NCBI GenBank assembly: GCA_016186955.1
Contig: JACPKP010000003.1
Span: 66,290 to 130,289, forward strand
Source of the DNA: Candidatus Daviesbacteria bacterium
GTDB lineage: Bacteria > Patescibacteriota > Microgenomatia > Daviesbacterales > UBA10151
Length of the DNA stretch: 64,000 nucleotides
Reading direction: 5' to 3'
Shown piece after piece: positions 2-57,546 of this stretch (its first letter is position 1; every line of letters starts with the position of its first letter). The notes under the pieces were generated by a model that worked only from the letters and a program-made list of their open reading frames with translations, was not told the origin of the DNA and searched no databases. A program made the translations under genes and the position numbers.

Positions 2-1402
2 TTTTTAGCTTTGACAGCCCATCTAAGTTATGAATTGACATTATCATTGCCTCTGATGGTTTTTGCCTACCAATTACTTATGAAATTTAAAACAGGCAAA
101 TGGCGCTGGAAACTGTCAATACCGTATTTTTTCATAGTTTTAACTTATCTGTTTGTTAAATTTGGGTTAGTACATATGTATGGGGCACAAAAATATTTAG
201 CTGATAACTTTTTACTTACCTGGCTAGTTATGTTAAAAGTTTTTGTTTTATATATAAAACTGCTGGTTTTTCCACTCAACTTATCTATAGATCCGTCTCT
301 TGGACCCGGAATACAGGTACTCCTGGACCCCTTCAGCAATATTAATTATTTAAAATCCCTGACAATTTTTACTCCTGAGATTTTTTTGAGCTTGGTAGTC
401 TTGGTAATAATCATTTTTCTAGGTTTTAAAAACTTTAAGAAAAACCCTTGGGTTATATTCGGGATTGGCTGGTTTTTTATTGCCCTTTCGCCGGTATCCT
501 ATATATTTCCACAAGATGCAGCGTATCAGGAGAGGTATCTTTATATCGCCTCATTTGGGTACACTTTTATTTTATCCTGTTTGATATTTAAAATTTTTTC
601 TTTAAAGAAAAAATTTCTTTGGATAAAATATCTGACTATCTTTTGCTTAATTTTTTACCTGTCTTTTTATCTAACCAGAACATTTTTGAGAAATATGGAT
701 TGGAAGGATTCGGTGACTATGTGGAGAAAAGTTGTTACCCAAATCCCAGATTCTGTTGTGCAAAATTATGTTTATGCAATACATCTTGAGAGTGCGGGGG
801 ATAAATCTTTAGCGTTGGAGCAATACATTAAAGTTATTAACCTGGAGCCCCAATTTATAGATATTTATACAAAGATAGCAGAGATTTATAATGAGCAGGG
901 GAATATAAAAAGGGCTGTTACTTTTTTAAACACAGCCTTATTTTTGGATCCTGGCCATAAATCCAGCAAAGAACTATTAAATTCTATCATCGACAAAAAT
1001 AGTTCAACAGAGGGGATAATTATGACAGAAGGTTGGGTAGGACGGAAGATAGATGGTTTTCTCGTTTTTTATCCGGCAGATTGGAAAATAAATTTGGGAA
1101 AACAGTTTGAATTTAGAAACAGAGCTGGCGATTTTTTTCTACGATTAAAATTTAATGAGTTGGAAAATTTAACTGCAGATGCTTTTGTAAAAAAACAAAA
1201 AGTATCTGCAAAAGTAGAAAAAGAAGGACCGGCAAAGTTACCAAATTTCAATCCCGCATATGTTAGAATTTTACAGGACAATCAGATGCAACTTTTTTTA
1301 TTTAGACGTACAAAAGTTGTTGAGGTATTATTGCTGCCGAAAGATTCACCAGAGATGAAAGTTTTTGAAGAAATGATCGGACTTTTAACCCCGCTTGAGT
1401 AA
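2..1402 (+). CDS. TMTC-like (DUF1736-type) GT-C membrane glycosyltransferase with C-terminal TPR repeats; 5' end lies outside the window (frame open to position 2; ORF track starts at TTG 11)
   Basis: Shares the P(Q/V)GPxxxERYLYxASFGF then RNxDW(K/Q)D then TPR architecture with the ORFs at 5187 and 7004. TPR-like helices appear at aa ~250-330. No in-frame stop upstream to the window edge. Confidence 0.6.
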   Translation, partial: FLALTAHLSYELTLSLPLMVFAYQLLMKFKTGKWRWKLSIPYFFIVLTYLFVKFGLVHMYGAQKYLADNFLLTWLVMLKVFVLYIKLLVFPLNLSIDPSLGPGIQVLLDPFSNINYLKSLTIFTPEIFLSLVVLVIIIFLGFKNFKKNPWVIFGIGWFFIALSPVSYIFPQDAAYQERYLYIASFGYTFILSCLIFKIFSLKKKFLWIKYLTIFCLIFYLSFYLTRTFLRNMDWKDSVTMWRKVVTQIPDSVVQNYVYAIHLESAGDKSLALEQYIKVINLEPQFIDIYTKIAEIYNEQGNIKRAVTFLNTALFLDPGHKSSKELLNSIIDKNSSTEGIIMTEGWVGRKIDGFLVFYPADWKINLGKQFEFRNRAGDFFLRLKFNELENLTADAFVKKQKVSAKVEKEGPAKLPNFNPAYVRILQDNQMQLFLFRRTKVVEVLLLPKDSPEMKVFEEMIGLLTPLE

Positions 1403-2848
1403 ATGATAAAAATTATTAAAAGATATAAGTTTTGGGTTTTACCCCTTTTCCTATTTATATCCCAGGCGGTGTATACATTTAATTCAATGGGGCAGATTAG
1501 ATACGAAGAGCTTGCTGAATCTGTCAGAAATCCTTTCTGGTTTCAAAACAGATTAATGTTTGACGGATTATCCGGCAGTCTGTCTTGGTATGGTTTTCAG
1601 GCTCTGGTCTATAATATTTTCGGTTTCCATCTATTTGCCGCTAAAGTTATTAGGTTAATACTGGCAGGGATATCGATTTTTTGCCTTGCAGGTATTTTAA
1701 AAAAATATTTAGGCATCAGGAATGGTTTGATACCGCTGCTGGCTATTGGTATCTCACCGACACTTCTTTATTTTAATATTTTACAAACTACATATGGTAT
1801 GGATTTGCAGTTTTTGCCAATATGCCTTTACCTCTTGTCACGGATTTATCAAAACCCTCAAAAAACCTTAAACCATATCTTACTTTGGATGTTAGTTATG
1901 ATTGCCTGGCTTTGCTACCCTAACTTTGTTTTTTATATTCCTGCGTTGGGTGTAGTGGATTATGTTATTTTACGGGGTAGCAAAATACAGAGTAAATCCA
2001 AAAAGGTCTCATTTTCAATTATCGCTTTTTTATCCCCACTGCTGATTGTATTTTTTTATATTAAAAATAGGCAGGATCTGATCTATGATCCGGTTGCCAA
2101 AAGCGGATTATTTAGGGGTGGGGTAAAATCAGGGTTGGACTTTTCTTCTCTTTGGCCGAGTCTGCAGGTGACACTGGGCGATCTTTTTCAAAAGGGGAAC
2201 AGTTATTATTTTGAATTAAAAAATGCTGAATTTTCAGGATATTATCCAATCACTGCCGTTTTACTAGTAGTGGCCGCAAGTTTTTATATTTTTTTTACTT
2301 TAAAAAAAATCAGATTAATTTTAGGGGTTATATATCTGACAGTTTTACTGACAATATTTTTAGGGCACAGCGCCGGAGACAGTGTATTTTCGGGCATCCG
2401 CAGGGCTACACCTCTTCTGGTTTCTTTTTACATACTTTATTCAATAGTCTGGTCATTTATATTGAAACTTAAGATAAAAATGAAGTTTTTAAAGTTTTCT
2501 CTGGTCTGCCTTTTGCTGCTTTTACCCCTTCACCACTTGCTGGTATATCCGGAAAACCTCTTATTTTTAAAAAGATATAGCCCTTATAGGAACCAGGGAT
2601 GGTTTGCAGTTGGTTCCTCTCCGGAGAAATCCCTTGATATTTTAGTTAGCCAGGTGCAAAAAGATGACTTGAAATTGGCATGTAAAGATAACAAAGGTCA
2701 AACAAACCTTTGTAGATATCAAGAAGTTTATGCAGCTGTTGCAGGGTCATGTTTGTGGAACAGATTGGAGTGTCATAAAATTTTAGGGTATGATGAAAGA
2801 ACTAAAAAAATGATCCCATTGTCGGTTGAACTTCTAGATCCCGATTAA
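1403..2848 (+). CDS. Polytopic membrane protein of unknown family, possibly glycosyltransferase-like; paralog of 3566..5005
   Basis: 481-aa ORF with many hydrophobic helices. Motif QIRYEELAESVRNPFWFQNR and the Cys-containing C-terminal block CRYxE(V/I)YAAVAGSCLWNRLxCHKILGYD are conserved with 3566..5005. Start abuts the upstream stop (TAAATG). Confidence 0.55.
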   Translation: MIKIIKRYKFWVLPLFLFISQAVYTFNSMGQIRYEELAESVRNPFWFQNRLMFDGLSGSLSWYGFQALVYNIFGFHLFAAKVIRLILAGISIFCLAGILKKYLGIRNGLIPLLAIGISPTLLYFNILQTTYGMDLQFLPICLYLLSRIYQNPQKTLNHILLWMLVMIAWLCYPNFVFYIPALGVVDYVILRGSKIQSKSKKVSFSIIAFLSPLLIVFFYIKNRQDLIYDPVAKSGLFRGGVKSGLDFSSLWPSLQVTLGDLFQKGNSYYFELKNAEFSGYYPITAVLLVVAASFYIFFTLKKIRLILGVIYLTVLLTIFLGHSAGDSVFSGIRRATPLLVSFYILYSIVWSFILKLKIKMKFLKFSLVCLLLLLPLHHLLVYPENLLFLKRYSPYRNQGWFAVGSSPEKSLDILVSQVQKDDLKLACKDNKGQTNLCRYQEVYAAVAGSCLWNRLECHKILGYDERTKKMIPLSVELLDPD

Positions 2849-3582
2849 AGTTTTTTTTGTGCAATAGCAATTATAGATAAACCAAAATTCAAGGGAACCG
2901 TTTTATCTAGGAAATCTAAACATGGAACAAGCTTATTAATAAGCCAAGTTTGGTGTTGAGGAAGACCCTTTCTTTTTAAAAGTTTACTGTTAACAAACCA
3001 ACCCAAGGCGCCTAGCTTATTAATATAAAATATTTTTTTTATTTTAAAGTTTGTTTTGACTAATTTATTTGATATCTCTTTTTTGGAGTATCTTCTAAAA
3101 TGGCCCACCCTTTTATCATAAGATCCATATAAAAAATTATGTGCAGGAGCAAGCAGTATGAGAATACCCTTATCCTTCAGCAATTTAGAAATATTGATTA
3201 ATACTTTCATATCATCTCGGGTATGTTCGACAACATTTACAGCAACGATAGTCTGAAATTTTTTGTTTATTTTACATGGTTTAGTTATATCCAAAAATAA
3301 AGGCTGTTTTGAAAACTGTTTAAGTTTTTTGATATATTTTTTATTAATCTCAGAAGGAGTAACATTGAAACCGGTAGATATTAATATCGAGGTAATAGTG
3401 CCAATACCGCTTCCGATTTCCAAAACGTCATTTTTTATAAAGTTTTTAAACTTAGAAACAAGCCAAAGGTTGTAAGCATTAAGCCCTGAAAGTGTTTCTA
3501 ACGCTTGTATCTGCAAATCCATAAATTGATATTTATTTTTTGCTAATATATCATTTCCATCATCAATGCAAAAGAGGTTCAA
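2845..3582 (-). CDS. Class I SAM-dependent methyltransferase
   Basis: Motif I VLEIGSGIGTIT followed by an acidic residue after strand 2. Length 245 aa. Confidence 0.7.
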   Translation of the reverse strand: MNLFCIDDGNDILAKNKYQFMDLQIQALETLSGLNAYNLWLVSKFKNFIKNDVLEIGSGIGTITSILISTGFNVTPSEINKKYIKKLKQFSKQPLFLDITKPCKINKKFQTIVAVNVVEHTRDDMKVLINISKLLKDKGILILLAPAHNFLYGSYDKRVGHFRRYSKKEISNKLVKTNFKIKKIFYINKLGALGWFVNSKLLKRKGLPQHQTWLINKLVPCLDFLDKTVPLNFGLSIIAIAQKKL

Positions 3583-5005
3583 GGGTTGGTATTGGTTTTT
3601 GGTTTTGATTTTATTTGGTTTTCAGACAATTTTTATTTTTAACTCTTTGGACCAGATACGTTATGAAGAATTAGCAGAATCTGTAAGGAACCCTTTTTGG
3701 TTTCAGAATAGGCTGATATACGATGGCACCTCCGGTAGTATCTTTTGGTATGGAATTTTAGCATCCGTTTACAATATTTTTGGGTTTAGTTTATTCACTG
3801 CCAAATTCGTCAGGTTATTTTTATATCTAATATCGCTGTTGTCGCTGGCAGCTTTATTAAAAAAATATTTTGGAGTAAAAAAAGCTGTAATCCCTCTTAT
3901 AACAATAGGGTTTTCACCGACTCTGCTGTATTTTAATACAATACAAACCATAGGAATTGACTTGGTATGGCTGCCGATATCCCTGTATCTGCTTAGTCGA
4001 ATAGATTTTAAGAAGGGTGCTTTTACACAAATTTTATTTTGGGTGATTTTAATGTTTTCCTGGCTTTCTTATCCTACTGTTATTTTTTATACCCCTGCGC
4101 TAGTTCTCATATATGGATATAAATTATTTAAAACAAAAGCAGCAATACTAAAAAATGTTTTGATAAGTACAGCAACATTTTTTATGCCTCTAATTTTAAC
4201 CTTTATTTACATCACAAACAGAGAATGGATGATATACGACCCGCACCTTAGAAACGGTTTGTTTAGGGGTGCAGGACTGTTGCAGTTTGACGGCGGGTTT
4301 TTCTTTAGAAATCTTAATATCTTGAGTATGAATTTATTTGACCGGGCTTGGGGTTATTATTTTGAGCTTTCTAATGTTGAATTTTCACATATTTTGCCGA
4401 TGTTTTCTATTGGTTTAATTTTTTACATAGCTGTTAAGGTTTTTTTCATCAGCCCAAAACTTCGCTTCTGGGTTTTTTTGGCATTTATAACACTTATTCT
4501 AAACATTGTTGTGATAAGTTTTTCAATAGATCCTAATCTTGGAATCAGACGGTACACCCCAGTTATCGCTTCAATTTATGTACTGTTTATAATCTGCTGG
4601 GTATATACCAGAGATCTTCAAAAAAACAACCAGTTCCGTCTTATCACAACCTTAATGCTGATTATTATACCTGCCCACCATATATTAAGCTTTCCTGTTA
4701 ACTTAGTTCATTTAAAAGATCCAAGTTATTTTCGGGAAATGGTTTGGTTTAACAGATCAGAGACTCCCCAGAAATCCCTTGATCTGGCAGTCCAGGAGGT
4801 GCAGCAACATGATTTAGATCTGATCTGTTTGGATCAAAAAAATCAGCCCTATCCTTGCAGATATAGCGAAATTTATGCTGCAGTGGCAGGTTCTTGTTTA
4901 TGGAACAGACTGCAATGCCATAAAATTTTAGGTTATGATTTCAAAACAAAAAATTTTATTCCCCTTTCCGTTGAACTCTGGAATACTTACTACTTCGGGC
5001 ATTAG
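3566..5005 (+). CDS. Polytopic membrane protein; paralog of 1403..2848
   Basis: 479 aa with the same conserved N-terminal motif and Cys-rich C-terminal block as 1403..2848. Confidence 0.55.
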   Translation: MQKRFKGWYWFLVLILFGFQTIFIFNSLDQIRYEELAESVRNPFWFQNRLIYDGTSGSIFWYGILASVYNIFGFSLFTAKFVRLFLYLISLLSLAALLKKYFGVKKAVIPLITIGFSPTLLYFNTIQTIGIDLVWLPISLYLLSRIDFKKGAFTQILFWVILMFSWLSYPTVIFYTPALVLIYGYKLFKTKAAILKNVLISTATFFMPLILTFIYITNREWMIYDPHLRNGLFRGAGLLQFDGGFFFRNLNILSMNLFDRAWGYYFELSNVEFSHILPMFSIGLIFYIAVKVFFISPKLRFWVFLAFITLILNIVVISFSIDPNLGIRRYTPVIASIYVLFIICWVYTRDLQKNNQFRLITTLMLIIIPAHHILSFPVNLVHLKDPSYFREMVWFNRSETPQKSLDLAVQEVQQHDLDLICLDQKNQPYPCRYSEIYAAVAGSCLWNRLQCHKILGYDFKTKNFIPLSVELWNTYYFGH

Positions 5006-5186: not shown

Positions 5187-6965
5187 ATGATGTTAAAAAA
5201 ATTAAAATCACAAAAAGTTCAACTTCTGATAATTATTATTTTAACCTTTCTTGCTTATTCAAATATCTTCACCAACCACCTTGTTATAGATGACCAGTTT
5301 TTTATCAAAGAATGGCCCCAGATGCAAAACTTTGATGTTGGTGTATTGCTTGGTGGTTCACTTCCTGCAAAGGCCAGCGGGGTCTACCGGCCGATCAGAA
5401 GCTTACTTTATGCATTTTATTACCAGATAGGAGGGGAGAATACATTCATTTATCATCTACACTCAATCCTCGTCCACCTGGCAGCAACATTGTTAGTCTA
5501 TTTTATAACCAGGCAGCTCATTCTCACCCCGGGGGTGAAAAACTTGAGATTACACCCCCGGGGTGGTCACTGGTTGGCTTTTTTAACTGCCCTTCTTTTC
5601 GGCCTGCACCCAATCCATACAGAAGAAATTACATATATCTCAGCCAGCATGGATGCAACAGGGATTGTGTTTTTGTTGGCCTCATTTTACCTGTATATGC
5701 GCTCGCAATTCACCCCGGGGGTGAAAAAAATGCAGCTACACCCCCGGGGTGTAGTCTTGGGAGGTTCAATAGCTTTCGCATTACTGGCATTTTTCACAAA
5801 CGAATTAACGCTGATACTGCCAGTACTCATCATTTTATATGAGATCTATTTTGGCAAAATTGCAGCCTCATCAATAAGATTGCCACGTCCTCCGATGGAC
5901 ATCGGAGTCCTCGCAATGACAATGTTTTACTTTGGTTTAACTGCTTTCTATATGTTTGTGAGGTTTTTTGTGGTCCAAGTTCCATTCAGCAGGGGGGATT
6001 ATCTGGCCCAAAGTTTTTACCATACTATGTTGGTGATGCCGGGAATCGTTTTGAAGTATATTTATCTTCTTGTTGTTCCTTTAAAACTTTCTTTTTACCA
6101 CACTCTTGCTCCTGGCTTTGAAAATTATATGGTGGCTTACACTCGTTTTGATTCAATTTTAAAAAAGTCATTTTTTGATGCTGATGTTTTATTGTCCCTG
6201 GTAGGATTGATTGGACTGATAGGACTTATTTTCTGGTTTTTCCAAAAAAACCGGTTGGTTAGTTTTTGTCTGGCCTGGTTTTTTATCACAATGTTACCAG
6301 TCTCATACATTATACCAGTTGGCCCGGCAATTTCTGAAAGATATCTATATTTGGCTTCCTTTGGGTTTTGTTTATTGGCAGGCTATCTGATGATAAAAAT
6401 TTCTAATTTCAAATTTCTAATTTCAAATTTCAAACTCCTTTTTTTAACTTTTAACTTTTTACTTTTAACTTTTTACTTTTACCAGACTTATCAACGCAAC
6501 TGGGATTGGCAGGATATACCCTCTCTTTACAAAAGCACATTAAGGGTTTATCAGAAGAGCCTAATTGCCAGCTATCATCTGGCTGTTTATTACTCAAATA
6601 ACCAACAATTTGCATTGGCAGTTCCTGCTTACCAGAAAGTATTAAGCATAGAGCCGGATTTTTATGAAGCCCATGCTAATTTAGGGAGCGCCTATTTTAA
6701 TTTAGGCCTGAAAGATGAGGCAGGGATCCAATACCAAAGGGCATTAAGCATTAATCCAAATTTTTTAGATGCCTATTTAGGTTTAGCATCTGTTTACAAA
6801 CAACAAGGAAAATCTAAAACTGCGGTGGAAATGTTAAAAAAAGGTTTAGATATTGATCCTGGAAAATACAAAACTTTAGGAGTGTTAAAAAGCCCGGAGG
6901 AGATCAATATTAAACTGGCTGGTATCCGTAAAATGCTAAAGGAGTTGCAAACTCCAACCCATTGA
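5187..6965 (+). CDS. TMTC-like (DUF1736) GT-C glycosyltransferase with C-terminal TPR; carries in-frame palindromic insertions
   Basis: Motifs GVYRPIRSLxYA, GLHPIHTEE, PVGPAISERYLYLASFGF and RNWDWQD, followed by TPR repeats (AHANLGSAYFNLG..., AYLGLASVYKQQG). Paralog of 7004..9091. Confidence 0.7.
   Translation: MMLKKLKSQKVQLLIIIILTFLAYSNIFTNHLVIDDQFFIKEWPQMQNFDVGVLLGGSLPAKASGVYRPIRSLLYAFYYQIGGENTFIYHLHSILVHLAATLLVYFITRQLILTPGVKNLRLHPRGGHWLAFLTALLFGLHPIHTEEITYISASMDATGIVFLLASFYLYMRSQFTPGVKKMQLHPRGVVLGGSIAFALLAFFTNELTLILPVLIILYEIYFGKIAASSIRLPRPPMDIGVLAMTMFYFGLTAFYMFVRFFVVQVPFSRGDYLAQSFYHTMLVMPGIVLKYIYLLVVPLKLSFYHTLAPGFENYMVAYTRFDSILKKSFFDADVLLSLVGLIGLIGLIFWFFQKNRLVSFCLAWFFITMLPVSYIIPVGPAISERYLYLASFGFCLLAGYLMIKISNFKFLISNFKLLFLTFNFLLLTFYFYQTYQRNWDWQDIPSLYKSTLRVYQKSLIASYHLAVYYSNNQQFALAVPAYQKVLSIEPDFYEAHANLGSAYFNLGLKDEAGIQYQRALSINPNFLDAYLGLASVYKQQGKSKTAVEMLKKGLDIDPGKYKTLGVLKSPEEINIKLAGIRKMLKELQTPTH
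5525..5565. repeat. 41-bp palindromic element, copy 1 (13-bp stem CACCCCGGGGGTG / CACCCCCGGGGTG, 15-nt loop), in-frame inside the CDS
   Basis: Perfect inverted repeat read directly from the sequence. It encodes an extra LTPGVKNLRLHPRG segment that the paralog 7004..9091 lacks. Confidence 0.75.
5711..5751. repeat. 41-bp palindromic element, copy 2 (same 13-bp stems, different 15-nt loop), in-frame inside the CDS
   Basis: Perfect inverted repeat. It encodes FTPGVKKMQLHPRG, which is absent from the paralog. Confidence 0.75.
6396..6482. repeat. Two adjacent 14-nt tandem duplications (TTTCTAATTTCAAA x2 and ACTTTTAACTTTTT x2, each with a partial third copy) inside the CDS
   Basis: Read directly. 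Translates to KISNFKFLISNFKLLFLTFNFLLLTFYFY. The words resemble the AT-rich intergenic motifs at 44462-44560. Confidence 0.6.
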
Positions 6966-7003: not shown

Positions 7004-9091
7004 ATGGAGCAAGTTTTCAAATATCTGGATAAAAATAAGTATTTGGGGCTTGTTATTGTTTTGGTGGCTACTTTTTTAGTTTATGCAAACTCACTCCAAA
7101 ATGGGTTTGTAATTGAAGATGATATTTATATCAAAAATTGGTCTCTCACCCAAAGCCTTGCCAACATCCCAAAAATGTTTGGCGGGGATACTGCCCCAAC
7201 CGGGAATTATGGCATCTACAGGCCATTGCGGGGGGTATTTTATGCAATCAGTTATGCAATGTGGGGCGCTTCTAACCCTTTAATCTATCATACTCAGGCA
7301 TTATTGGTGCATCTTATCATCACCGGGCTAGTATTTTTGATAGCCCTGCAGGTTTTTAAAAAACCTTACCTGGCTACCCTGGCAGGTCTTTTGTTCGGCC
7401 TTCATCCTATTCATACAGAACCGGTCGATTACCTGACCGCTAATTTTGATGCAGTCTCCTACATCTTTTTTTTCGGTTCGCTTTACTTTTACTTAAAGAG
7501 TCTAAAACTGCCAAAATTTGATATCAACTATTACCTGTCTTTAGCCCTGGCAACATTGGGGTTTTTCTATTTCGAAATGACTTTAACACTGCCGTTTCTG
7601 GTACTTGCCTATGATTTTTGTTTCAGAAGAAAGATGTTTAAAAAATGGGAGGATACTTTAAAAATATACGGGCCTTATTTTTTCGCAGCAGGAGTTTTTC
7701 TGTTTATAAGAATTGTTTTACTCAATATGACTGTCAGGGGGGAATATTTAGGGGGAAGTTTTTATCTGACCATGCTCACCATGGTTAAAGTGATAGTAAA
7801 ATACCTATATCTTTTGATCTTTCCCCTTAACCTCTCAATTAACCCCCAGATTGCAGACGGCATTTATTCCTGGGTTCACCCTCTTGCTAGGATGGACAAA
7901 ATTCTTTCTCAGTCAATTTTTAATCCGGATATCTTGGCAAGATTGGGGTTGCTAGGCGGACTTTTTTATGCTGCGTATTTTTTTTACAAAAAACTGCCTA
8001 TGGTTCCGTTTTGTATCTTCTGGTTTTTTATCTCAATTTTGCCAATCTCCTATATCATCCCGCAGGGGCCAATTATGCAGGAAAGATATATCTATACCGC
8101 CTCGTTTGGGTTTGTCATGCTTTTGGTATATCTTTTTGATTATCTGCAACACCATGATTTCAGTAAAAACAAAAAAAGATCAAAAGAGGTCCGTGAAATC
8201 CTGCAGCCTGCACTGGTTACGTTACTTATTATAACCCTATCTTTTTATGCCTTCAGGACATTTACCAGAAACAGGGATTGGAAAGACTCTTTTGCGGTTT
8301 GGTCAACTTTAGCAAAAGAGTCTCCGCAGGATGTGATAGCAAACTTTTACACAGCCAACCTTTATGCCCAAAATAATATGGATGATTTGGCAACGCAGTA
8401 TTATAACAAGGCGCTGTCAGTGGAATATAAACTTCATGAAGCGCATTTTGCTTTAGGAAAAATAGCCTTCAAGCAGGGCAATTTTGACTCTGCGGCCACT
8501 AAATTTTATCAAACCCTTGCTATAAACCCAAACTTTACTCCGGCTCTTGAAGGTTTAGACCTGATAAACAAGGAAGCAACCGCAGAAGGAAAACTGAACA
8601 AGGAAAATATCTGGAAAGAATGCACCCTGCAGCAACAGTCTGAAATTACACTTATTTTTTCCTGTCCAACTACTTGGAAGATGATCAAAACTAAGCAAGG
8701 TTTAACCCTGAAAGATACGAAGGGCGAATTCCATATAGAGATGAGTTTGGACAGCGCCCAAGGCGAACCCAATTTGGATGAATATCTTGCCAAGCAAACA
8801 GATACATATGGTAATTTAGTCAACCAGGGCCTTGCCAATTTCCTGAATTTTGACGCAGCTGCAGTCAAAGTATGGGAGGAACCAGCAGAAGAGGCGACCC
8901 AGCCCAAAAAAACCCAGAAGAAAGATGGGGGAGAACAAACCCAGCCTGAACAAAATTTGCAAAAATTACAGTTCTTCCTTTTTAAAGGAAGTAATGTTAT
9001 TAAAATACTTGTTTACCCCTCAAACTCTCCTTTAATGCCTAAATTTGAAAGGTTAGTCAGCTCTATCAAAGAAGTTGAGAAAGCTCCCTAG
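7004..9091 (+). CDS. TMTC-like (DUF1736) GT-C glycosyltransferase with TPR repeats and an acidic/lysine-rich C-terminal extension
   Basis: Motifs GIYRPLRGVFYA, GLHPIHTEP, PQGPIMQERYIYTASFGF and RNRDWKD. TPR: YTANLYAQNN..., AHFALGKIAFKQGNFDSA. Confidence 0.7.
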   Translation: MEQVFKYLDKNKYLGLVIVLVATFLVYANSLQNGFVIEDDIYIKNWSLTQSLANIPKMFGGDTAPTGNYGIYRPLRGVFYAISYAMWGASNPLIYHTQALLVHLIITGLVFLIALQVFKKPYLATLAGLLFGLHPIHTEPVDYLTANFDAVSYIFFFGSLYFYLKSLKLPKFDINYYLSLALATLGFFYFEMTLTLPFLVLAYDFCFRRKMFKKWEDTLKIYGPYFFAAGVFLFIRIVLLNMTVRGEYLGGSFYLTMLTMVKVIVKYLYLLIFPLNLSINPQIADGIYSWVHPLARMDKILSQSIFNPDILARLGLLGGLFYAAYFFYKKLPMVPFCIFWFFISILPISYIIPQGPIMQERYIYTASFGFVMLLVYLFDYLQHHDFSKNKKRSKEVREILQPALVTLLIITLSFYAFRTFTRNRDWKDSFAVWSTLAKESPQDVIANFYTANLYAQNNMDDLATQYYNKALSVEYKLHEAHFALGKIAFKQGNFDSAATKFYQTLAINPNFTPALEGLDLINKEATAEGKLNKENIWKECTLQQQSEITLIFSCPTTWKMIKTKQGLTLKDTKGEFHIEMSLDSAQGEPNLDEYLAKQTDTYGNLVNQGLANFLNFDAAAVKVWEEPAEEATQPKKTQKKDGGEQTQPEQNLQKLQFFLFKGSNVIKILVYPSNSPLMPKFERLVSSIKEVEKAP

Positions 9092-9094: not shown

Positions 9095-9215
9095 CTATTT
9101 CAAAACGTCATCGCGAGCGACCGGGGGGAGCATAGCGATCTTACTTCAATCAGATTGCTACGTCACTCGCTGCGCTCGTTTCTCGCAATGACATCGGGTT
9201 TTGAAATGGGCTCTA
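9095..9215. terminator. Long imperfect inverted repeat between convergent genes; putative bidirectional terminator
   Basis: TTTCAAAACGTCATCGCGAG ... CTCGCAATGACATCGGGTTTTGAAA, with a second internal dyad CGAGCG ... CGCTCG. It lies between the 3' ends of 7004..9091 (+) and 9213..10655 (-). Confidence 0.4.
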
Positions 9216-44461: not shown

Positions 44462-44496
44462 AATTCAAAATGCAAAATTCAAAAGGTAAAAGTACA

Positions 44497-45775: not shown

Positions 45776-45813
45776 TGCAGCAATTGTAACATTATGTATA
45801 ATCTAGAAAAATA

Positions 45814-48655: not shown

Positions 48656-49785
48656 TTTTGATGATGTTGGTATGCAACTTTTTCAATTAACTTCAAGCTC
48701 ATTTTTTTGGATTTTTCCCATGTAAATTTTTTACTCCATGCCAAAGCCCCTTTTTTGAGCCTGCTGTATTTCTTCTGGTCATTTAGTAAATTGAGTATAT
48801 TATTTGCAAGCTCTAAAGGTGTATTATCTTTACAAATTACCCCTGAAATACCATGTTTTACAGAATCAACCAGCCCGGGAGATGAGTAAGCCATAACAGG
48901 TGTCCCAACACTGTTAGCTTCTATATTTACAAGTCCCCAGCCTTCCCGTGCCGAAGGATTGATTAGAAGATGTGAACGGGAAAGCAGTTTGAATTTATCT
49001 TTTTCTGAGACATATCCCCAGAATTTCACTTTTTTTGATATGCCAAATCTTGCAGCCAGTTTTTTCAATTTCCTGGTATAGATTGTTGTTTGGGGTTTTC
49101 CTATGACCCAAAAGCGGAAGTCACCCAGTTTATCTAAAAAAGAGTAGCATTTGAGCGCATCTTCAATGCCTTTATCTTTTGACAAAGCTCCCAGAAACAT
49201 AATCGTCCATTGTTTGTTTTTATGTATTTTTTTAAATTGAATTAGTTTAATCGCGTGGTTAATAATGTAGATCCTGTCAGGTTTAATACCAAGATTGACC
49301 AGGTCTTTTTTAGTAGAAGGTGAACCAGTCCAAAAGGGTATACCGGTGTAGATTTTAAAGATTAGAGGTTCAAGTACGTATCCCAGTAGTCCAAAGATCC
49401 AACTGAGAGGCCATTTTAGCTCATTCATAAACCAGACCTCTTTTGCTACCTCTTGAATCACTGCCAGCTTTTTTATTCTAATATAAAGCGGGGTAAAAAA
49501 CGGCAGGCCATGGAATTGATCAAACACCAGATCAAATTTAGACTGATTTCTTAAATAGTAAAAACAAGCAGCTATCTGGACTCCCAGATACTCGTGCCCG
49601 CTTCTTAAAATATTGACCCCATCGAGTGTTTCCTCTTTTGCAGCGCCTTGGAACCGGGAAGAAAATAGGTATACAGTATGTCCTGCTGCTATCCAGCCTT
49701 TGGCATGCTCATGGGTAACCTGTTCTGCGCCTCCTGCCAAAGGGTGTTTAGGGTCGCGCCAGGAAAGAATTAGTATGTTCATCAC
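48652..49785 (-). CDS. Glycosyltransferase family 4
   Basis: N-terminal MNILILSWRDP...GGAEQ. C-terminal INPSAREGWGLVNIEANSVGTPVMAY. Confidence 0.7.
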   Translation of the reverse strand: MMNILILSWRDPKHPLAGGAEQVTHEHAKGWIAAGHTVYLFSSRFQGAAKEETLDGVNILRSGHEYLGVQIAACFYYLRNQSKFDLVFDQFHGLPFFTPLYIRIKKLAVIQEVAKEVWFMNELKWPLSWIFGLLGYVLEPLIFKIYTGIPFWTGSPSTKKDLVNLGIKPDRIYIINHAIKLIQFKKIHKNKQWTIMFLGALSKDKGIEDALKCYSFLDKLGDFRFWVIGKPQTTIYTRKLKKLAARFGISKKVKFWGYVSEKDKFKLLSRSHLLINPSAREGWGLVNIEANSVGTPVMAYSSPGLVDSVKHGISGVICKDNTPLELANNILNLLNDQKKYSRLKKGALAWSKKFTWEKSKKMSLKLIEKVAYQHHQK

Positions 49786-50597
49786 CCTATATTTACTCTA
49801 AAGTTAAGCTCCGGGTCAAATACCCATCTTCTTTTATTTTTGTCAGAATAATAATGCATCAGTTTTAACCTGTAAAAAACCGCCAAAGTATCCCAAAGTA
49901 TCCGGAATATTGTTATATAAAAGTTTTTACCTGTAACAGCTGAAGTATTGCCAAACTCCAGTTTAATCTCCACCGGAGCTTCAAAAATCCTTTTAAACCC
50001 TGTATAATTTGCAACAGCCAGTATTTCGATATCAAATGCGTAAGTTTTAACAAGCAGGCGGGGGAGCACTTTTTCCAAAACTTCTCTCCGGAAAAACTTC
50101 AGCCCTACCTGGGTGTCTTTGACCTTTAAGCCGAATAAAACCCCTGTTAAAACCTGGTATCCGATTGAAAGGATCCTTCTTTGCCATGGATAAATAACTT
50201 TAGAGACGGGATGCCTTTTTGACCCTACCACAATATCAGCCCCATACCACTCAAAATGTTCCAGCAGCATTGACAACCCGTTTGGGTTTAAATCCATGCC
50301 TGAATCTATAAAAGCGATAATATTTCCTCTGGCTTTAGCCATCCCAAAGCGGATAGCGTAACCCTTACCTCTATTGGTTTCATATCCGACCACTCGGACA
50401 CCAGGATTTTTTTTGGAAAATTCGGCTGCTTTTTGGAGTGTTTTGTCTGCGAATCCGTCTACCACACAGATCAACTCTGTTTTGTACCTAAGCTTGTCCA
50501 GGATTTGTTTAATCCTGCGCAGGTCTTTGATAATGGTTTTTTCCTGCTTGTAGGCAGGTATAATAATAGATATCAGGGTTTTTCTCATTGGCTGCAC
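49782..50597 (-). CDS. GT2 polyprenyl-phosphate sugar synthase-like (DPM1/ArnC-like)
   Basis: ISIIIPAYKQEK...LICVVDGFADKT...NRGKGYAIRFG...IAFIDSGMDL. First gene of the minus-strand operon. Confidence 0.55.
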   Translation of the reverse strand: MQPMRKTLISIIIPAYKQEKTIIKDLRRIKQILDKLRYKTELICVVDGFADKTLQKAAEFSKKNPGVRVVGYETNRGKGYAIRFGMAKARGNIIAFIDSGMDLNPNGLSMLLEHFEWYGADIVVGSKRHPVSKVIYPWQRRILSIGYQVLTGVLFGLKVKDTQVGLKFFRREVLEKVLPRLLVKTYAFDIEILAVANYTGFKRIFEAPVEIKLEFGNTSAVTGKNFYITIFRILWDTLAVFYRLKLMHYYSDKNKRRWVFDPELNFRVNIG

Positions 50598-54671: not shown

Positions 54672-54944
54672 TTACAATTTGTAGATATCATGACTGCCAA
54701 TTTTATGAAATAAAACCTTTCCTTGCCCCATAAATTCAAATATAATCCTATCTTTATAATTTATAGAAAATGCCCATAAACCTTCTAATTGACCAGTAAG
54801 TTTATGGGTTTTTGACGTAGGGGAAAATGGATCCTTTTTAAATAATTTCTCTGCCTTGATAGCCTGTTTCTGTATCTTTGGGGTGAGTTTTTTAAATTGT
54901 TTGACAAAATTACTTGAGTACTCTATTTGAGTAATAGCCATCAA
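54672..54944 (-). CDS. Type II toxin, RelE/ParE family
   Basis: KLTGQLEGLWAFSINYKDRIIFEF...VLFHKIGSHDIY, typical of the RelE/StbE family. 90 aa. 4-nt overlap with the upstream antitoxin. Confidence 0.7.
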   Translation of the reverse strand: MMAITQIEYSSNFVKQFKKLTPKIQKQAIKAEKLFKKDPFSPTSKTHKLTGQLEGLWAFSINYKDRIIFEFMGQGKVLFHKIGSHDIYKL

Positions 54945-55252
54945 ATTAAATCAGAGAGTGAGCCTGTTTTGATAGTTTTGTCTTCTTTATACTCTTTTCT
55001 GCCTTCCTCTACCACCCGGAGTGTATCCGCCACTTCCGCCTCGTAGGCAATTCTTCTCAGATTCTCTAAAGCCTTATAATCAATTATTGCCACATCTGGT
55101 TTATTGTTGGATAGCACAACCACAGGCTCCTTAGTTTTTTTGACCCTATCAAAAACCTTACGGTAGTTTTTTTGTATATCAGATACAGAGACTGTATTAG
55201 GCATCAATGTAATCATAATATGTATAATATTACATAAAATTTTATATGTCAA
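54941..55252 (-). CDS. Type II antitoxin, Phd/YefM family (start probably an internal Met)
   Basis: VSVSDIQKNYRKVFDRVKKTKEPVVVLSNNKPDVAIIDYKALENL. Confidence 0.65.
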   Translation of the reverse strand: MTYKILCNIIHIMITLMPNTVSVSDIQKNYRKVFDRVKKTKEPVVVLSNNKPDVAIIDYKALENLRRIAYEAEVADTLRVVEEGRKEYKEDKTIKTGSLSDLI

Positions 55253-57546
55253 GGGGTTGGTGAAGGAGAGGGAGTATTTTTAGGTGATGGTTTAGGGCTA
55301 ACTTTGACAGCTTCAGGTGTAGCGATATTTTCCGGTTGTGGCAGGTTCAGAACTTTTGGCAGCTGTTTTTTTTGGAGGGCGCCTTTTTCTTCCTGGGGGA
55401 TATTCTGCTTAGCGCTGCCGGTTGCAGTTTTATTGCCCTCAGATTTAATATCAGATAGCAGTTTGCTGGCTGTATCATAGTCTTTATCTTTGGGGTTTAA
55501 TAAAGATATTAATGCTTTCACGGTAAGCTCGGCGCCTGCAAAATCCCCCTTATCTTTCTGGGTTGCTGCAAGGCGGTAATAAGCAATGGTAAGATCCGGT
55601 TTTAAATTGATAGCATCAGTGAAAAACCTGATAGCCAGGTCATAATTTTTGATAGAACGGTGGATTTCCCCAACGCTAAACCTTAGCAGCGGGTTTAACG
55701 GGTCTCTTAATATTGCTTGCCCGTATGAATCCAGCGCAAAACTGAGGGCGTTTTGCGCCACACCGGTGATTTGCCGGTATATTGAACCCAATATTTCATA
55801 ATTGGTGCTGTTTCTCGGGCTTAAAAATATGGCATTTCTCGCCTCACTGATTGATTGTGATAAAAGCTGGCTGATGTCCTGTTTATCCTGGTCTGTCAGG
55901 GAGCCGGTGGGGGAGGCCTCGCTCGGGCCTTTGGCGGCTGCAATCCCGTTAGCCAAGGCAAAATCAACCTGGGCGAGGTTAATCCTGTACAGGTCAATTT
56001 GGGAGTTTAATTGTTTGGCTTGTTGCAGCCGGTAGTAGGTGTCAGGGCCTTTTTTATAAATTGAATCCAGCGCCAGCCGGTGCTGGTAGTCGGCAAGCGC
56101 CACCCGGTATATATTACTGGCGGCTGCTGCCACAAAAATAAATACTACTATTAGCAGGGTAATTGGCAAAACATCACCGGCTATCAGGTTTTGCATTGCC
56201 TGGGGATCCAGCCTGGATGCCTTGATACCCAAATGCCATTCTTCCGCCTTGCCGGCCATTTTATGCATTGCCACCAGCATCGCCCATATAGTAAGTGTTA
56301 CCACCATAGTTGTTGGAGTAGAAACATGCATGGCAAGCAGTATCAGGGCAGCAATAGCGCTAATGGAAAGGGACGCCGCAGCCAGGTTATTCTCAGGCTG
56401 CATCAGCCCCCTGGCCCCTAGCTTAAATACTGTAAATGACAGGTATAAAAAGGCCAGAAAACCTGTGATTCCTAGTGTCCCTAAAATCTGTAGGTATTCA
56501 TTAAAAGCGCTGTCAAAGCGTAAATTCCAGAATTTGGTCATGTTAAATTCAATTGGTTTATTTTTGGTGAAGTTAAACAGGTAAGTACCAGGGCCTGTGC
56601 CTAAAAATGGGGCATCACGGAAAGCGGAAGCGGATATCTGCCAGGAGATAGCCAGCGGCAGTTGGATCTCCTTTGGAAAATCCAGCCGTTTTTGGAAAAA
56701 GGGGTTAGCGGGTTGGCCTGTTTTGATAAAACCCAAAATTAAAATCAGCGCTGCAATACAAAATGGGATGGCGGCATAGATAACACTACGTTTAATACGT
56801 TCCAGTTTAGCTGTAAAAAATGTCAACCCTAAAACTGCCAAAGCAGCCGTACCTGTTGCCATGTCTCCAATCAAAGCTATGGCGGCTGCAAACAAACCGG
56901 ATAATATAATAGCTAAATACAGCGGTATAAAATTATTCGGGTTGGCTATTGAAAGCAATGTTACCGGCAGCATCAACACCAGCAGTGTTGATGCGGAAAA
57001 AGAGGATCCTGTAGGGGTAAAATTGACAGTTTGCGCAAAGGGAAGGGGAATATACCAGTTGAAATAAGATACAATACTAACAGCGGCTACCAATACTGCA
57101 GAAGAGAGTAGACTATAGTATAAAGCTTTAACCTGGGTTCTGGATTTGATATTGGATACAAGGATAAAATAGAACAGTATGTAAGTGATAAAGCTGACTA
57201 TTGAACCATGGACCCTGGGTAAATTGCCAAAGATTGCCACTGGCTTTGAATCTGTAAAAACAGTGGACAACACCAACACTGCAAGCAGTAACACAAGGGG
57301 TAGGTCAAGAGGGGTTTTGGTCACTACCACCTTGCCCTCTAAAACCCACTTCAGCGACCACAGCAAAAGTAAAAGCAGGACAGTTACTGATAAAAAAATA
57401 AGTTTGGGGATGTCAAAAAATTCTGTCGTAAGGGGGACAAAAATAAGCGGGGTGATAAAAATTACCAACACCATCAAAACTGTCATCAATTTACTTACCC
57501 ATGTTAATAAAGCTTGTTTCATAATCTTAAAATTTGATCTTTCCAA
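55249..57546 (-). CDS. Wzy_C / O-antigen-ligase-like membrane protein with C-terminal TPR repeats (PglL/WaaL-type candidate oligosaccharyltransferase)
   Basis: About 12 TM helices. Wzy_C-like loop motif FRDAPFLGTGPGTY...SAFNEYLQILGTLGITG. C-terminal TPR (AYYRLAATQKDKGDFAGA...) and a PKPSPKNTPSPSPTP tail. Confidence 0.5.
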   Translation of the reverse strand: MERSNFKIMKQALLTWVSKLMTVLMVLVIFITPLIFVPLTTEFFDIPKLIFLSVTVLLLLLLWSLKWVLEGKVVVTKTPLDLPLVLLLAVLVLSTVFTDSKPVAIFGNLPRVHGSIVSFITYILFYFILVSNIKSRTQVKALYYSLLSSAVLVAAVSIVSYFNWYIPLPFAQTVNFTPTGSSFSASTLLVLMLPVTLLSIANPNNFIPLYLAIILSGLFAAAIALIGDMATGTAALAVLGLTFFTAKLERIKRSVIYAAIPFCIAALILILGFIKTGQPANPFFQKRLDFPKEIQLPLAISWQISASAFRDAPFLGTGPGTYLFNFTKNKPIEFNMTKFWNLRFDSAFNEYLQILGTLGITGFLAFLYLSFTVFKLGARGLMQPENNLAAASLSISAIAALILLAMHVSTPTTMVVTLTIWAMLVAMHKMAGKAEEWHLGIKASRLDPQAMQNLIAGDVLPITLLIVVFIFVAAAASNIYRVALADYQHRLALDSIYKKGPDTYYRLQQAKQLNSQIDLYRINLAQVDFALANGIAAAKGPSEASPTGSLTDQDKQDISQLLSQSISEARNAIFLSPRNSTNYEILGSIYRQITGVAQNALSFALDSYGQAILRDPLNPLLRFSVGEIHRSIKNYDLAIRFFTDAINLKPDLTIAYYRLAATQKDKGDFAGAELTVKALISLLNPKDKDYDTASKLLSDIKSEGNKTATGSAKQNIPQEEKGALQKKQLPKVLNLPQPENIATPEAVKVSPKPSPKNTPSPSPTP

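Follow-up and report, generated by a model that had tools for sequence, protein, structure and literature searches.

A dense glycosylation region with TMEM260-like and TMTC-like GT-C genes in a Candidatus Daviesbacteria genome

The locus is an exceptionally dense glycosylation region in a CPR bacterium. The window, i.e. the whole 64,000 bp stretch of DNA analysed, comes from a groundwater Candidatus Daviesbacteria (Microgenomates/CPR), and sugar-transfer genes fill about 50 kb of this tiny genome, with about 39 of about 42 consecutive genes being glycosylation-related. Between positions 2 and 57546 there are 14 polytopic genes of the GT-C type, in agreement with the roughly 14 of the original prediction, and one Wzy_C gene with TPR; all 15 candidate membrane genes have 6-11 TM helices according to TM prediction. 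Pfam also gave the 5 GT4 genes (one of them a double GT4), the Wzx flippase, the 6 methyltransferases and the 2 NAD-dependent epimerase/dehydratases that had been expected, and 8 GT2 genes (7 free-standing and 1 fused) where nine had been claimed. Directly established are the folds and families, the conservation of catalytic residues and of gene order, and the recurrence of neighbourhoods; the enzymes probably decorate cell-surface proteins and envelope glycan, both of which are candidate targets only.

A single multi-enzyme system had been proposed. The region is instead a composite of two glycosylation modules, the K/L cluster usually being more than 10 kb away from the TPR enzymes in other genomes. 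Module 1 is the glycan-assembly cluster at about 20.6-50.6 kb, perhaps including I and J. Module 2 comprises A-H at 2-15.1 kb together with O at 55.2-57.5 kb, that is, GT-Cs carrying or partnering with extracytoplasmic TPR. The two glycosylation modules flank a housekeeping island with Rho, a LysM-M23 peptidase and two tRNA-Ala genes, and are separated by two toxin-antitoxin pairs as well. The features are listed in Table 1.

Table 1. Features of the region with positions in the window, strand, assignment and supporting matches
Feature	Position	Strand	Assignment	Evidence
A	11..1402	+	TMTC-like GT-C, C-terminal TPR	TPR matches; 30-31% identity to D and E; D-family profile 2e-98
B	1403..2848	+	PMT_2-type GT-C, 481 aa, 8+ TM	Pfam PMT_2 7e-8, above gathering score; first-loop YEELAE
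MT1	2845..3582	-	SAM-dependent methyltransferase	Methyltransf_23 4e-10
C	3566..5005	+	PMT_2-like GT-C, paralog of B	48% identity to B over 480 aa
D	5187..6965	+	TMTC-like GT-C, ~11 TM, C-terminal TPR	
E	7004..9091	+	TMTC-like GT-C with TPR, tandem paralog of D	35% identity to D; TPR matches
F	9213..10655	-	ArnT/PMT_2-type GT-C, DE motif IDES	PMT_2 5e-14
G	10657..12381	-	YfhO/PTPS_related-type GT-C, constant partner of H	PTPS_related 2e-5, below threshold
H	12503..15109	-	TMEM260-like (DUF2723) GT-C, then Rossmann-like domain, TPR, C-terminal TM helix	PF11028 2e-23; TPR
Glucodextran_B protein	15207..16115	+	Membrane-anchored protein, Glucodextran_B (Ig-like) domain	Pfam 4e-7; one N-terminal TM helix
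Toxin-antitoxin pair	16127..16900			
I	16964..18319	+	Small GT-C-like membrane protein, 10 TM, distant from PTPS_related	
J	18583..20700	+	Probable GT-C-like membrane protein, 9 TM, outer domain, C-terminal TM	
MT2, GT2a, GT4a, Wzx flippase, GT2b	20657..25630	+	Upstream part of cluster	Pfam; Wzx Polysacc_synt_3 2e-50
K	25650..28571	+	973-aa GT-C, large extracytoplasmic domain, Microgenomates-restricted family	
L	28547..31411	+	954-aa paralog of K	32% identity over full length
GT2c, double GT4 (777 aa), MT3, GT4b, Epi1	31408..37495	-	Conserved core: double GT4, MT3, GT4b	Pfam
M	37530..39857	-	GT2 domain (WbbL/rhamnosyltransferase-like) fused to PMT_2 GT-C, FDEA motif	Glyco_tranf_2_3 1e-19; PMT_2 3e-8 (C-terminal half)
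MT4, N, MT5, GT2d, Epi2, MT6, GT4c, GT2e, GT2f, GT4d, GT2g	39850..50597	-, except GT4c +		Pfam
N	40422..41780	-	PMT_2 GT-C, YDEA motif	PMT_2 4e-10
GT2g	49782..50597	-	DPM1/GtrB/ArnC-like GT2	Dol-P-Man synthase 5mlz 3e-14; GtrB 5ekp 3e-13; ArnC 2e-6
Toxin-antitoxin pair	54672..55252			
O	55249..57546	-	Wzy_C membrane protein, 11 TM, C-terminal TPR	Wzy_C 2e-9, 37.7 bits vs cut-off 31.7
Giant LamG	57592..62946	-	Giant surface protein, 1784 aa, 6 LamG_3 domains	Laminin_G_3 3e-156, 6 stretches
Second LamG	62921..63901	-	LamG protein, C-terminal part	Laminin_G_3 4e-37

Judged by its sequence, H is a genuine member of the TMEM260 family, as predicted. It matches the cryo-EM structure of human TMEM260, a protein O-mannosyltransferase (9rql, about 3e-10), and has the same order of GT-C, Rossmann-like and TPR domains. 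D36 and D441, present in every one of 25 homologs, are the equivalents of the donor-site D52 (the Asp of DSG) and the catalytic base D441 of the human enzyme, in which the TPR alone binds the acceptor peptide (bioRxiv 10.64898/2026.03.17.711096). Unlike in human TMEM260, the Microgenomates clade (20/25) has Asn where the human enzyme has H67, the donor-loop residues R264 and Y267 do not align, an invariant R253 is at a different position, and H has an extra C-terminal TM helix and no IPT-domain clients. The existence of distant bacterial TMEM260 homologs has been noted (PMC10214176); they are uncharacterised. G adjoins H in six related loci, and the G ortholog in L032 carries a YfhO match. The Glucodextran_B protein encoded next to H is possibly a surface protein; it has no orthologs in the related loci and is not kept beside H elsewhere.

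The three genes predicted to be TMTC/DUF1736-like with TPR, A, D and E, do have the GT-C fold, the TPR and four TMTC motifs (defined in PMC7801869), but DUF1736 was not matched by Pfam in any of them even at E<=1. PF08409 was likewise found in none of 120 homologs, whose Pfam relation, when there is any, is PMT_2. The D family keeps motifs M1 (DD, 48-49 of 49), M2 (YRP), M4 (E, 49 of 49) and M7 (ERxxY), while M5 (DW), a TMTC motif, was not found in it. A is cut at the window edge and lacks about 190 aa of its N-terminus, the alignment to D and E starting at their residue ~190. With about 11 TM helices, DD in outer loop 1 and TPR at the C-terminus, these proteins resemble both metazoan TMTC1-4 (GT105 cadherin O-mannosyltransferases) and Pseudomonas aeruginosa TfpW, an 11-TM GT-C arabinosyltransferase with a DDX motif and C-terminal TPR that glycosylates pilin (bioRxiv 10.1101/2020.04.19.049825); their size of 590-700 aa is also like that of TfpW (646 aa). 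In contrast to the setting of TfpW, no pilin gene adjacent to A, D or E was found in the window, and the Daviesbacteria genome, although small, has at least six TMTC-like paralogs, unlike TMTC or TfpW. The D/E tandem is kept in four related loci, and D is 100% identical to a Ca. Daviesbacteria protein. The TMTC-like and TMEM260-like families are widespread in bacteria and DPANN archaea, and the label 'eukaryote-like', given to them originally, misleads.

B and C form the expected pair, with C itself having no Pfam match, and the three ArnT/PMT-like genes with a DE motif were identified as F, M and N. The C-terminal part of M is 39% identical to N, and L114 has GT2 and PMT_2 as separate adjacent genes in place of the fused M. 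The four giants described as YfhO-like could not be upheld as such: K and L have sub-threshold PTPS_related matches and are not YfhO, and J has no Pfam family match. J is probably GT-C-like, its sole support being that it weakly matches the K/L profile in collinear segments (1.6e-5 as the best i-E), and is the weakest assignment among the candidate GT-Cs. I has no Pfam match itself, and within its family PTPS_related is matched by 10 of 39 members and PMT_2 by one. Conserved acidic residues are kept in H and in the D family (DD and E); the DUF1736 and YfhO assignments failed.

The core of Module 1 at about 22-46 kb (Wzx, K, L, GT4s and methyltransferases) has a gene order that is kept across Microgenomates, with synteny in 25 genomes that span five candidate phyla-level groups. 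The K-L tandem is kept in about 20 genomes; GT4a and Wzx are found upstream of K in three loci and Wzx in five others, the double GT4, MT3 and GT4b follow K/L in eight, and the positions of MT2, GT2a and GT2b vary. The fold of K matches AftD (553 aligned residues), AftA and AftB, and the large outer domain of K and L is like that of mycobacterial AftD and Emb, but the K/L family is confined to Microgenomates and is below every curated family threshold. Two DPM1/ArnC-like synthases had been claimed; from the matches listed for it, GT2g is the only GT2 that is clearly assignable as a polyprenyl-phosphate-sugar synthase. Its presence together with many GT-Cs, including the YfhO/PTPS-like G and F, M and N with their ArnT/PMT DE motif, resembles three-component systems, in which a GtrB/CsbB-type GT2 and a flippase are combined with a GT-C (for example YfhO, GtrC or ArnT). 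Unlike in these systems no GtrA/GtcA-type small flippase was found here, and the number and diversity of GT-Cs are far higher than in three-component or Aft/Emb systems. An initiating phosphoglycosyltransferase was found neither in the window nor up to 10 kb from K in two further genomes. Module 1 fits an envelope polysaccharide no less well than it fits protein glycosylation.

Wzy_C covers polymerases, lipid ligases and protein O-oligosaccharyltransferases alike. The prediction of a Wzy_C/PglL-like ligase with TPR holds for the domains of O, but a PglL function is indistinguishable by sequence from other Wzy_C roles, and O is a candidate O-oligosaccharyltransferase, ligase or polymerase. The above-threshold Wzy_C and the 11 TM helices are shared with the O-oligosaccharyltransferases PglL, PilO and WsaB and with WaaL ligases, the C-terminal TPR extension is not, and no PDB relative was found. 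The surroundings of O, with Wzx, GT4/GT2 and methyltransferases, presumably resemble the slg (S-layer glycan) clusters of Geobacillus and Paenibacillus. Lipid A is generally reported to be absent from CPR bacteria, and because of this a WaaL-type role is unlikely.

The giant LamG surface proteins predicted to be adjacent are present beyond O. The first is a candidate acceptor; at the start of its ORF there is a 23S_rRNA_IVP four-helix-bundle domain together with a TM anchor (TM helix 220-238), and its S+T content is 19.8% compared with a window mean of 12.3%, with only modest S/T-rich patches. The second gene is probably truncated by the window end. Elsewhere in Microgenomates, TPR-bearing GT-Cs again have LamG proteins of the giant or pilin-like kind as neighbours, in few independent lineages. 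In L032/L042 a pilin-like LamG, G, D, E, H, IVP and a homolog of the giant LamG adjoining H are found together, and in L118 a pilin-like LamG precedes G and H. O orthologs adjoin H in three loci: L034 has O, H, G and a 1144-aa Kelch-like protein, L035 has Rho, LysM-M23, O, H, an MT1 ortholog, a C-like gene and GT2g, and L116 has Rho, LysM-M23, H, H, G, O and a protein of more than 2300 aa. In 9 of 80 metagenome loci a GT2g-like gene is close to an H homolog. Co-occurrence of GT-C and LamG genes was thus seen in these lineages for the H/G/O/D-E module, and no LamG genes were found in about 500 kb around K-family genes.

Ser/Thr O-glycosylation of proteins by the TPR-bearing enzymes is plausible, and we are evenly divided on it. 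In the cytoplasm a polyprenyl-linked, methylated oligosaccharide would be assembled by the GT4 and GT2 enzymes, the epimerase/dehydratases and the methyltransferases, to be flipped by Wzx; K, L and the PMT_2-type M and N may extend or transfer sugars on the outward-facing side of the membrane, and GT2g may make a polyprenyl-phosphate monosaccharide donor. The TPR of the GT-Cs would hold an extended polypeptide while Ser/Thr of secreted or surface proteins are O-glycosylated, as in human TMEM260 and P. aeruginosa TfpW, and O might transfer the flipped glycan en bloc like PglL or WsaB. Giant and pilin-like LamG proteins would be the likeliest acceptors. A literature search found no published description of protein glycosylation in CPR, which agrees with the original statement that such a system is undescribed in these organisms. 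Counted against the protein reading are the change of H67 to Asn, the unaligned R264/Y267, the missing DUF1736 and M5, the missing initiating phosphoglycosyltransferase and the few LamG-adjacent lineages, and there is one clear polyprenyl-phosphate-sugar synthase for 14 GT-Cs.

The preference for protein glycosylation over a polysaccharide locus, as first proposed, is favoured by the recurrence of TPR GT-Cs near LamG, but Module 1 fits an envelope polysaccharide at least equally well. The whole region could build and decorate a non-protein envelope glycopolymer (secondary cell-wall polysaccharide, lipoglycan or teichoic-acid-like polymer), a possibility of some weight that we nevertheless lean against. 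After cytoplasmic synthesis of a repeat unit or backbone and its flipping by Wzx, the Wzy_C protein would polymerise or ligate it, and many GT-Cs would branch and extend it outside from polyprenyl-phosphate sugars, as Aft/Emb do on mycobacterial arabinogalactan and LAM and CsbB/YfhO-type three-component systems on teichoic acids, with the TPR domains as scaffolds or glycan binders. The conserved gene order of the K/L cluster is as for an essential envelope polymer locus, and the Aft-like fold of K and the YfhO/PTPS-like nature of G and its orthologs point the same way, as do deoxysugar and C-/O-methyltransferase genes in related loci, typical of polysaccharide clusters. Wall-polymer glycosylation by multi-component GT-C systems is well established (PMC8035078, PMC11127046), and TPR is frequent in exopolysaccharide export and assembly machinery (BcsC, PgaA and LapB are among the weak NCBIfam matches). 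Against a glycopolymer, no LCP ligase, initiating phosphoglycosyltransferase or teichoic-acid genes were found in the window, and H retains, in its Rossmann-like domain, the Asp with which human TMEM260 deprotonates its acceptor Thr. Moreover, the sole characterised GT-C enzymes with TPR (TMTC1-4, TMEM260 and TfpW) are all protein-directed, and the H/G/O/D-E module can be separated genomically from the K/L cluster and is found repeatedly next to genes for giant surface proteins.

It is improbable that independent loci without a shared pathway are accidentally juxtaposed, some paralogs maybe being redundant or decaying. Since Microgenomates commonly have giant LamG genes, the LamG adjacency could then be a coincidence. 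The toxin-antitoxin and housekeeping genes between the modules and the distance between K/L and the TPR enzymes elsewhere are consistent with juxtaposition, and the Rho/LysM-M23/O side abuts H directly in L035 and L116, so the arrangement in the window would reflect rearrangement. However, the ORFs are all intact, long and tightly packed with catalytic residues conserved across families, a run of glycosylation-related genes of this length is not expected by chance, and many lineages again have the H+G pair, often together with O, D/E and GT2g-like genes.

The region is composite. It was originally predicted to be one system, and in related genomes it is separable into a cluster around the paralogous genes K and L and a module comprising H, G and O. 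According to the ORF map and Pfam searches on all ORFs of at least 150 amino acids, about 39 genes in the uninterrupted series of about 42 between positions 11 and 50597 have to do with glycosylation. To the right of these lie the genes for Rho and a LysM-M23 peptidase, two tRNA-Ala genes, a probable small toxin-antitoxin pair, gene O and the LamG giants. The GC content of the window is 0.34-0.44. The Rho gene is identical in Logan assemblies from four sequencing runs, and the order Rho, LysM-M23 peptidase, small ORF is kept in the related loci L001, L035 and L116.

Positions of the features discussed, counted within the window unless a related locus is named
Feature	Position	Strand	Description
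A	11-1402		TMTC-like, TPR
B	1403-2848		PMT_2-type
C	3566-5005		PMT_2-type
D	5187-6965		TMTC-like, TPR
E	7004-9091		TMTC-like, TPR
F	9213-10655		PMT_2-type
G	10657-12381		partner of H
H	12503-15109		TMEM260-like, TPR
Toxin-antitoxin pair	16127-16900	+	VapB/AbrB-like antitoxin (117 aa), PIN-domain VapC-like toxin (139 aa); assigned from sequence reading
I	16964-18319		GT-C-like
J	18583-20700		GT-C-like
K	25650-28571		GT-C-like
L	28547-31411		GT-C-like
M	37530-39857		PMT_2-type, GT2 fusion
N	40422-41780		PMT_2-type
MT6	44531-45775	-	methyltransferase, 414 aa
GT2g	49782-50597		GT2
tRNA-Ala GGC, tRNA-Ala CGC	53959-54658		flank a 176-aa ORF without family match
Two small ORFs	54672-55252	-	90 and 103 aa; between the tRNAs and O
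O	55249-57546		Wzy_C, TPR
LamG giants	57592-63901
LamG ORF with IVP domain	57592-62946	-	N-terminus at 62300-62946
Pilin-like protein, L032	5757-6935		about 390 aa; N_methyl motif, LamG_3
Pilin-like protein, L118	4249-5400		about 390 aa; N_methyl motif, LamG_3

All 15 candidate GT-C or Wzy_C genes are predicted to encode polytopic membrane proteins. The families found above the Pfam cut-off are PMT_2 (B, F, N and the C-terminal half of M), TMEM260-like (H) and Wzy_C (O). G, K and L gave PTPS_related matches below threshold, and no Pfam match was obtained for C, I, J or the membrane parts of A, D and E. The NCBIfam search on the GT-C proteins returned TPR noise only. Identity between paralogs is 30-35% for A, D and E, 48% for B and C, 32% for K and L and 39% for the C-terminal part of M and N. 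The acidic motif of the first loop is DD in D and E, DE in F, N and M, and EE in B and C, with a conserved D in K, L and G. Pfam, paralogy, the fold model of K, the gene I family and the first-loop motifs together uphold the predicted count of about 14 GT-C genes and one Wzy_C gene; nine GT2 genes had been predicted and eight were counted.

The scores against PMT_2 (PF13231, cut-off 26.1 bits) are 33.3 for B, 53.3 for F, 40.5 for N and 34.5 for M, and C is assigned as PMT_2-like solely through its identity to B. The DE motif expected in three ArnT/PMT-like genes is present in F, N and M. The four YfhO-like paralogs were not recovered: no window protein, including G, J, K and L, matches YfhO (PF09586), and a precomputed YfhO match is carried only by the G ortholog of locus L032. 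The predicted model of K (pLDDT 87.9) matches the structures of Pmt4 (19.8), STT3B (18.9), Pmt2 (17.8) and AftD (15.5, over 553 residues), as well as PglB and AftA, and has a GATase1/ThuA-like fold within its outer domain. By the fold of this model K is a GT-C. The family of gene I has 111 representatives among 1.8 billion, with Pfam matches to PTPS_related in 10 of 39 and to PMT_2 in one of 39. In three of the 39 the protein is fused to a SAM methyltransferase domain, which hints at a functional tie to sugar methylation. J aligns weakly and collinearly with the K/L profile and with nothing else, and is the least secure of the putative GT-C genes.

The predicted TMEM260/DUF2723-like protein with TPR was confirmed in gene H, which scores 83.7 bits against PF11028 (2e-23, cut-off 24.2) and matches the human TMEM260 cryo-EM structure 9rql_A at about 3e-10. 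The identical NCBI entry (100%) is named 'DUF2723 domain-containing protein' from Candidatus Daviesbacteria. In the human protein D52 and H67 have been identified in the GT-C domain and R264 and Y267 in a donor loop, H67, R264 and Y267 being essential to the enzyme; D441 of the Rossmann-like domain is the catalytic base, and the acceptor peptide is bound by the TPR domain alone (10.64898/2026.03.17.711096). D36 and D441 of H align to the human donor-site Asp D52 and to human D441, correspond to the two catalytic Asp and are invariant in all 25 aligned homologs (H and 24 others). At the position of human H67 there is an N in 20 of the 25, the Microgenomates clade, and an H in five. Human R264 and Y267 fall opposite G and L of H, at a low-confidence end of the alignment. 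Distant bacterial homologs of TMEM260 have been noted, none of them characterised (PMC10214176).

The likeness of A, D and E to TMTC, predicted for three TMTC/DUF1736-like genes, is partial. The reference motifs (PMC7801869) are DD (M1), SHKSYRP (M2), KE(T/Q)xxT (M4) and ERxxY (M7), followed by a luminal C-terminal TPR. In the D family (49 sequences) M1 (DD), M2 (YRP), M4 (the invariant Glu) and M7 (ERxxY) are retained, and A, D and E combine the GT-C fold, these four motifs and the C-terminal TPR of TMTC (GT105). The parts of the prediction that failed are DUF1736 (PF08409), absent from A, D and E at E<=1 and from all 120 homologs of D, and the metal-binding motif M5, as no conserved DW is found in the EL4 region of the D family. 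D is 100% identical to an NCBI entry named 'tetratricopeptide repeat protein [Candidatus Daviesbacteria bacterium]'. By the identities of D and H the window comes from a metagenome-assembled genome of the Microgenomates (CPR/Patescibacteria). The closest characterised bacterial architecture is that of TfpW, which glycosylates type IV pilin and is a GT-C of 11 TM helices carrying a DDX motif and, C-terminally, a TPR. Homologs of D occur in Microgenomates, Omnitrophica and DPANN archaea. Those on the DPANN side (MAGs labelled Woesearchaeota, Altiarchaeota and Bathyarchaeota) are 26-36% identical over more than 90% of the length, which suggests that the family is common to CPR bacteria and DPANN archaea. 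With relatives of H in more than 436 metagenome stretches and those of D in bacteria and DPANN archaea, neither family is rare in prokaryotes and the description 'eukaryote-like' is misleading.

The neighbours of H are conserved. An ortholog of G adjoins H nearly always, and genes of the D/E, O and GT2g types often do. The order is pilin-like N_methyl and LamG protein, G, D, E, H, 23S_rRNA_IVP protein, giant LamG protein in the Microgenomates loci L032 and L042; Rho, LysM-M23, O, H, MT1, C, GT2g in L035; O, H, G and then a 1144-aa Kelch-like protein in L034; H, E, D, D, H, G in L036; Rho, LysM-M23, H, H, G, O and then a protein of more than 2300 aa in L116; E, E, H, G in L117; and a pilin-like LamG protein followed by G and H in L118. 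In the Daviesbacteria locus L030, G and a tandem array of four D-type genes have a sortase and a PEGA protein as neighbours. Since O and the Rho/LysM side directly abut H in L035 and L116, the separation of O from A-H in the window is a rearrangement around the K/L cluster. In L032 and L118, which belong to two distant Microgenomates genomes, 2-5 kb separate the pilin-like LamG gene from the G-H pair. No type IV pilin N-methylation motif was found in the six frames of the window.

The K/L cluster was followed by a profile scan with one genome per species, in which the neighbours were labelled by the window's own proteins. The family was found only in Microgenomates-type MAGs (Daviesbacteria, Curtissbacteria, Levybacteria, Chisholmbacteria, Gottesmanbacteria and MAGs titled 'Gammaproteobacteria'). 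The latter titles, 'uncultured Gammaproteobacteria' (L010-L015, L020, L022, L025, L028 and L029), go with the same gene order in the cluster and are probably placeholders or wrong taxonomy. The conserved order is (GT4a)-Wzx-(GT2/MT)-K-L-(third paralog)-double GT4-MT3-GT4b-PMT_2 GT-C-GT2-epimerase-MT, which marks about 22-46 kb as the core, conserved throughout the lineage, of a glycan cluster that here spans about 20.6-50.6 kb. The 10 kb around this cluster hardly ever include a TPR enzyme or a LamG gene. Two Pfam-annotated K/L loci have extra deoxysugar and C-/O-methyltransferase genes, and no initiating phosphoglycosyltransferase was found in these two. Nor does any window ORF of at least 150 aa match Bac_transf or Glycos_transf_4 in Pfam, and Wzz, LCP and export genes are likewise missing among these ORFs; the gene for the initiating enzyme may lie outside the window. 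MT6 carries at its C-terminal end a Trm112p-like zinc-ribbon domain (3e-6), which sugar methyltransferases do not usually have.

GT2g matches DPMS (5mlz, 3e-14, residues 8-228), GtrB (5ekp, 3e-13) and ArnC (2e-6), and its best NCBIfam matches are PgfS, PpgS and ArnC, each below cut-off. Judged by sequence it is clearly a DPM1/GtrB/ArnC-like polyprenyl-phosphate glycosyl synthase and the only clear case. The second such enzyme predicted was not found; GT2c, GT2d and the N-terminus of M belong with GT2a to the WbbL/rhamnosyltransferase-like group. Wzx and a Wzy_C protein, O, are both present in the window; a conventional Wzx/Wzy O-antigen or capsule locus would in addition have an initiating phosphoglycosyltransferase (WecA/WbaP type) and a chain-length regulator or an export/ligation partner. 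O has the predicted Wzy_C domain at residues 219-367 (PF04932; 37.7 bits, cut-off 31.7; 2e-9), and by sequence the predicted PglL role, transfer of a lipid-linked glycan to protein Ser/Thr, is not separable from transfer to lipid A-core or to a growing polymer. PDB sequence searches with K, O and the N-terminus of D found no relatives, and for O no relative of solved structure was detectable.

The LamG giants contain 19.8% S+T against a window mean of 12.3%, and no sortase LPXTG motif was found in the LamG proteins of the window. The N-terminus of the larger ORF has a 23S_rRNA_IVP four-helix bundle (aa 36-132, 2e-8) and a TM segment (aa 220-238). Loci L032 and L033 instead encode IVP as a protein of its own (221-236 aa), its gene lying immediately downstream of a homologous LamG giant. 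Here it is in frame with the next LamG gene, which may reflect genuine fusion, a start codon that was missed or an error of assembly. IVP proteins resemble the Avd proteins of diversity-generating retroelements. Such an element was rejected for the IVP/LamG genes, with no TR/VR-like repeats and no reverse transcriptase in the window; the repeats in 54-64 kb are LamG-domain repeats only, of 60-80% identity.

The folds, the families, the conserved catalytic residues and the conserved neighbourhoods are directly established. In the mechanism proposed, GT2g would supply a polyprenyl-P-monosaccharide. Like TMEM260 and TfpW, A, D, E and H would hold extended stretches of secreted proteins with their TPR and attach this sugar there to Ser/Thr. 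The extension of glycans, or action on other acceptors, would fall to G and the PMT_2-type enzymes. The cytoplasmic GT4 and GT2 enzymes, the epimerases and the six methyltransferases would build a methylated oligosaccharide to be flipped by Wzx and then either transferred en bloc to protein by O (PglL/WsaB-like) or polymerised and extended by K/L. Acceptor candidates are the LamG giants and the pilin-like LamG proteins. That the TPR-bearing enzymes glycosylate proteins is an evenly balanced proposition, and the LamG proteins are doubtful as their targets. A two-route protein O-glycosylation in Microgenomates can be suggested tentatively: TMEM260/TMTC relatives with TPR 'fingers' would place single sugars from polyprenyl-P-sugar onto captured giant LamG adhesins or pilin-like proteins, and the Wzy_C-TPR enzyme would add the Wzx-flipped methylated glycan en bloc.

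The conservation of the K/L cluster throughout the lineage and the resemblance of the K model to AftD agree with a pathway to an envelope glycopolymer, comparable with the Aft/Emb systems of mycobacteria or the CsbB/YfhO systems of Gram-positive bacteria (PMC8035078, PMC11127046). This is a real possibility, short of being probable, and it fits less well with the conserved acceptor-side catalytic Asp of H and with a separable H/G/O module beside giant surface proteins. A purely accidental juxtaposition of loci is improbable, as it leaves the recurrent gene associations unexplained, although it is partly true of the physical layout.

All the enzymes can be placed in a known superfamily or likened to one, and H already has its DUF2723 label at NCBI. 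What appears to be new is the scale, with at least 14 GT-C genes in about 50 kb, which would be about 5% of a genome of about 1 Mb, the typical CPR size, together with the Microgenomates-restricted K/L family and the conserved H/G/(D/E)/O module, linked as it is to LamG proteins of giant size or pilin-like build. A literature search on protein glycosylation in CPR/Patescibacteria found no paper, in agreement with the prediction that such a system is undescribed in these organisms. CPR bacteria are thought to be host-attached, which makes surface chemistry central to their biology, and to our knowledge almost nothing is known of it. About 50 kb of a Daviesbacterium genome is devoted to glycosylation, with two sub-modules conserved across Microgenomates, and this gives testable candidates both for enzymes (the H/G pair, the D/E tandem, O and K/L) and for acceptors (the LamG giants and pilin-like LamG proteins). 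Human TMEM260 is a congenital-disease gene, and compact bacterial homologs with the two catalytic Asp could be tractable models of its mechanism and of how TPR-coupled GT-C protein glycosyltransferases arose in evolution. If true, the two-route reading would describe the first prokaryotic functional counterpart of animal cadherin/plexin O-mannosylation, a major investment of episymbiotic ultra-small bacteria in surface remodelling, by an enzyme family shared with DPANN archaea. The glycopolymer pathway, if true, would be a lineage-specific envelope pathway built around a new GT-C family of about 960 aa.

At least three further TMTC-like paralogs (P0003, P0048 and P0103), not identical to A, D or E, are found on the same NCBI contig outside the window. 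The genome thus holds at least six TMTC-like copies, and the glycosylation cluster may continue past the left edge of the window. Rfam gave nothing in the window beyond the two tRNAs. The VapB/VapC-like pair lies between the left GT-C array and genes I and J. The two small ORFs next to O are probably a second toxin-antitoxin pair, the 90-aa ORF probably being the gene with a weak YafQ_toxin match on the identical Logan contig L001.
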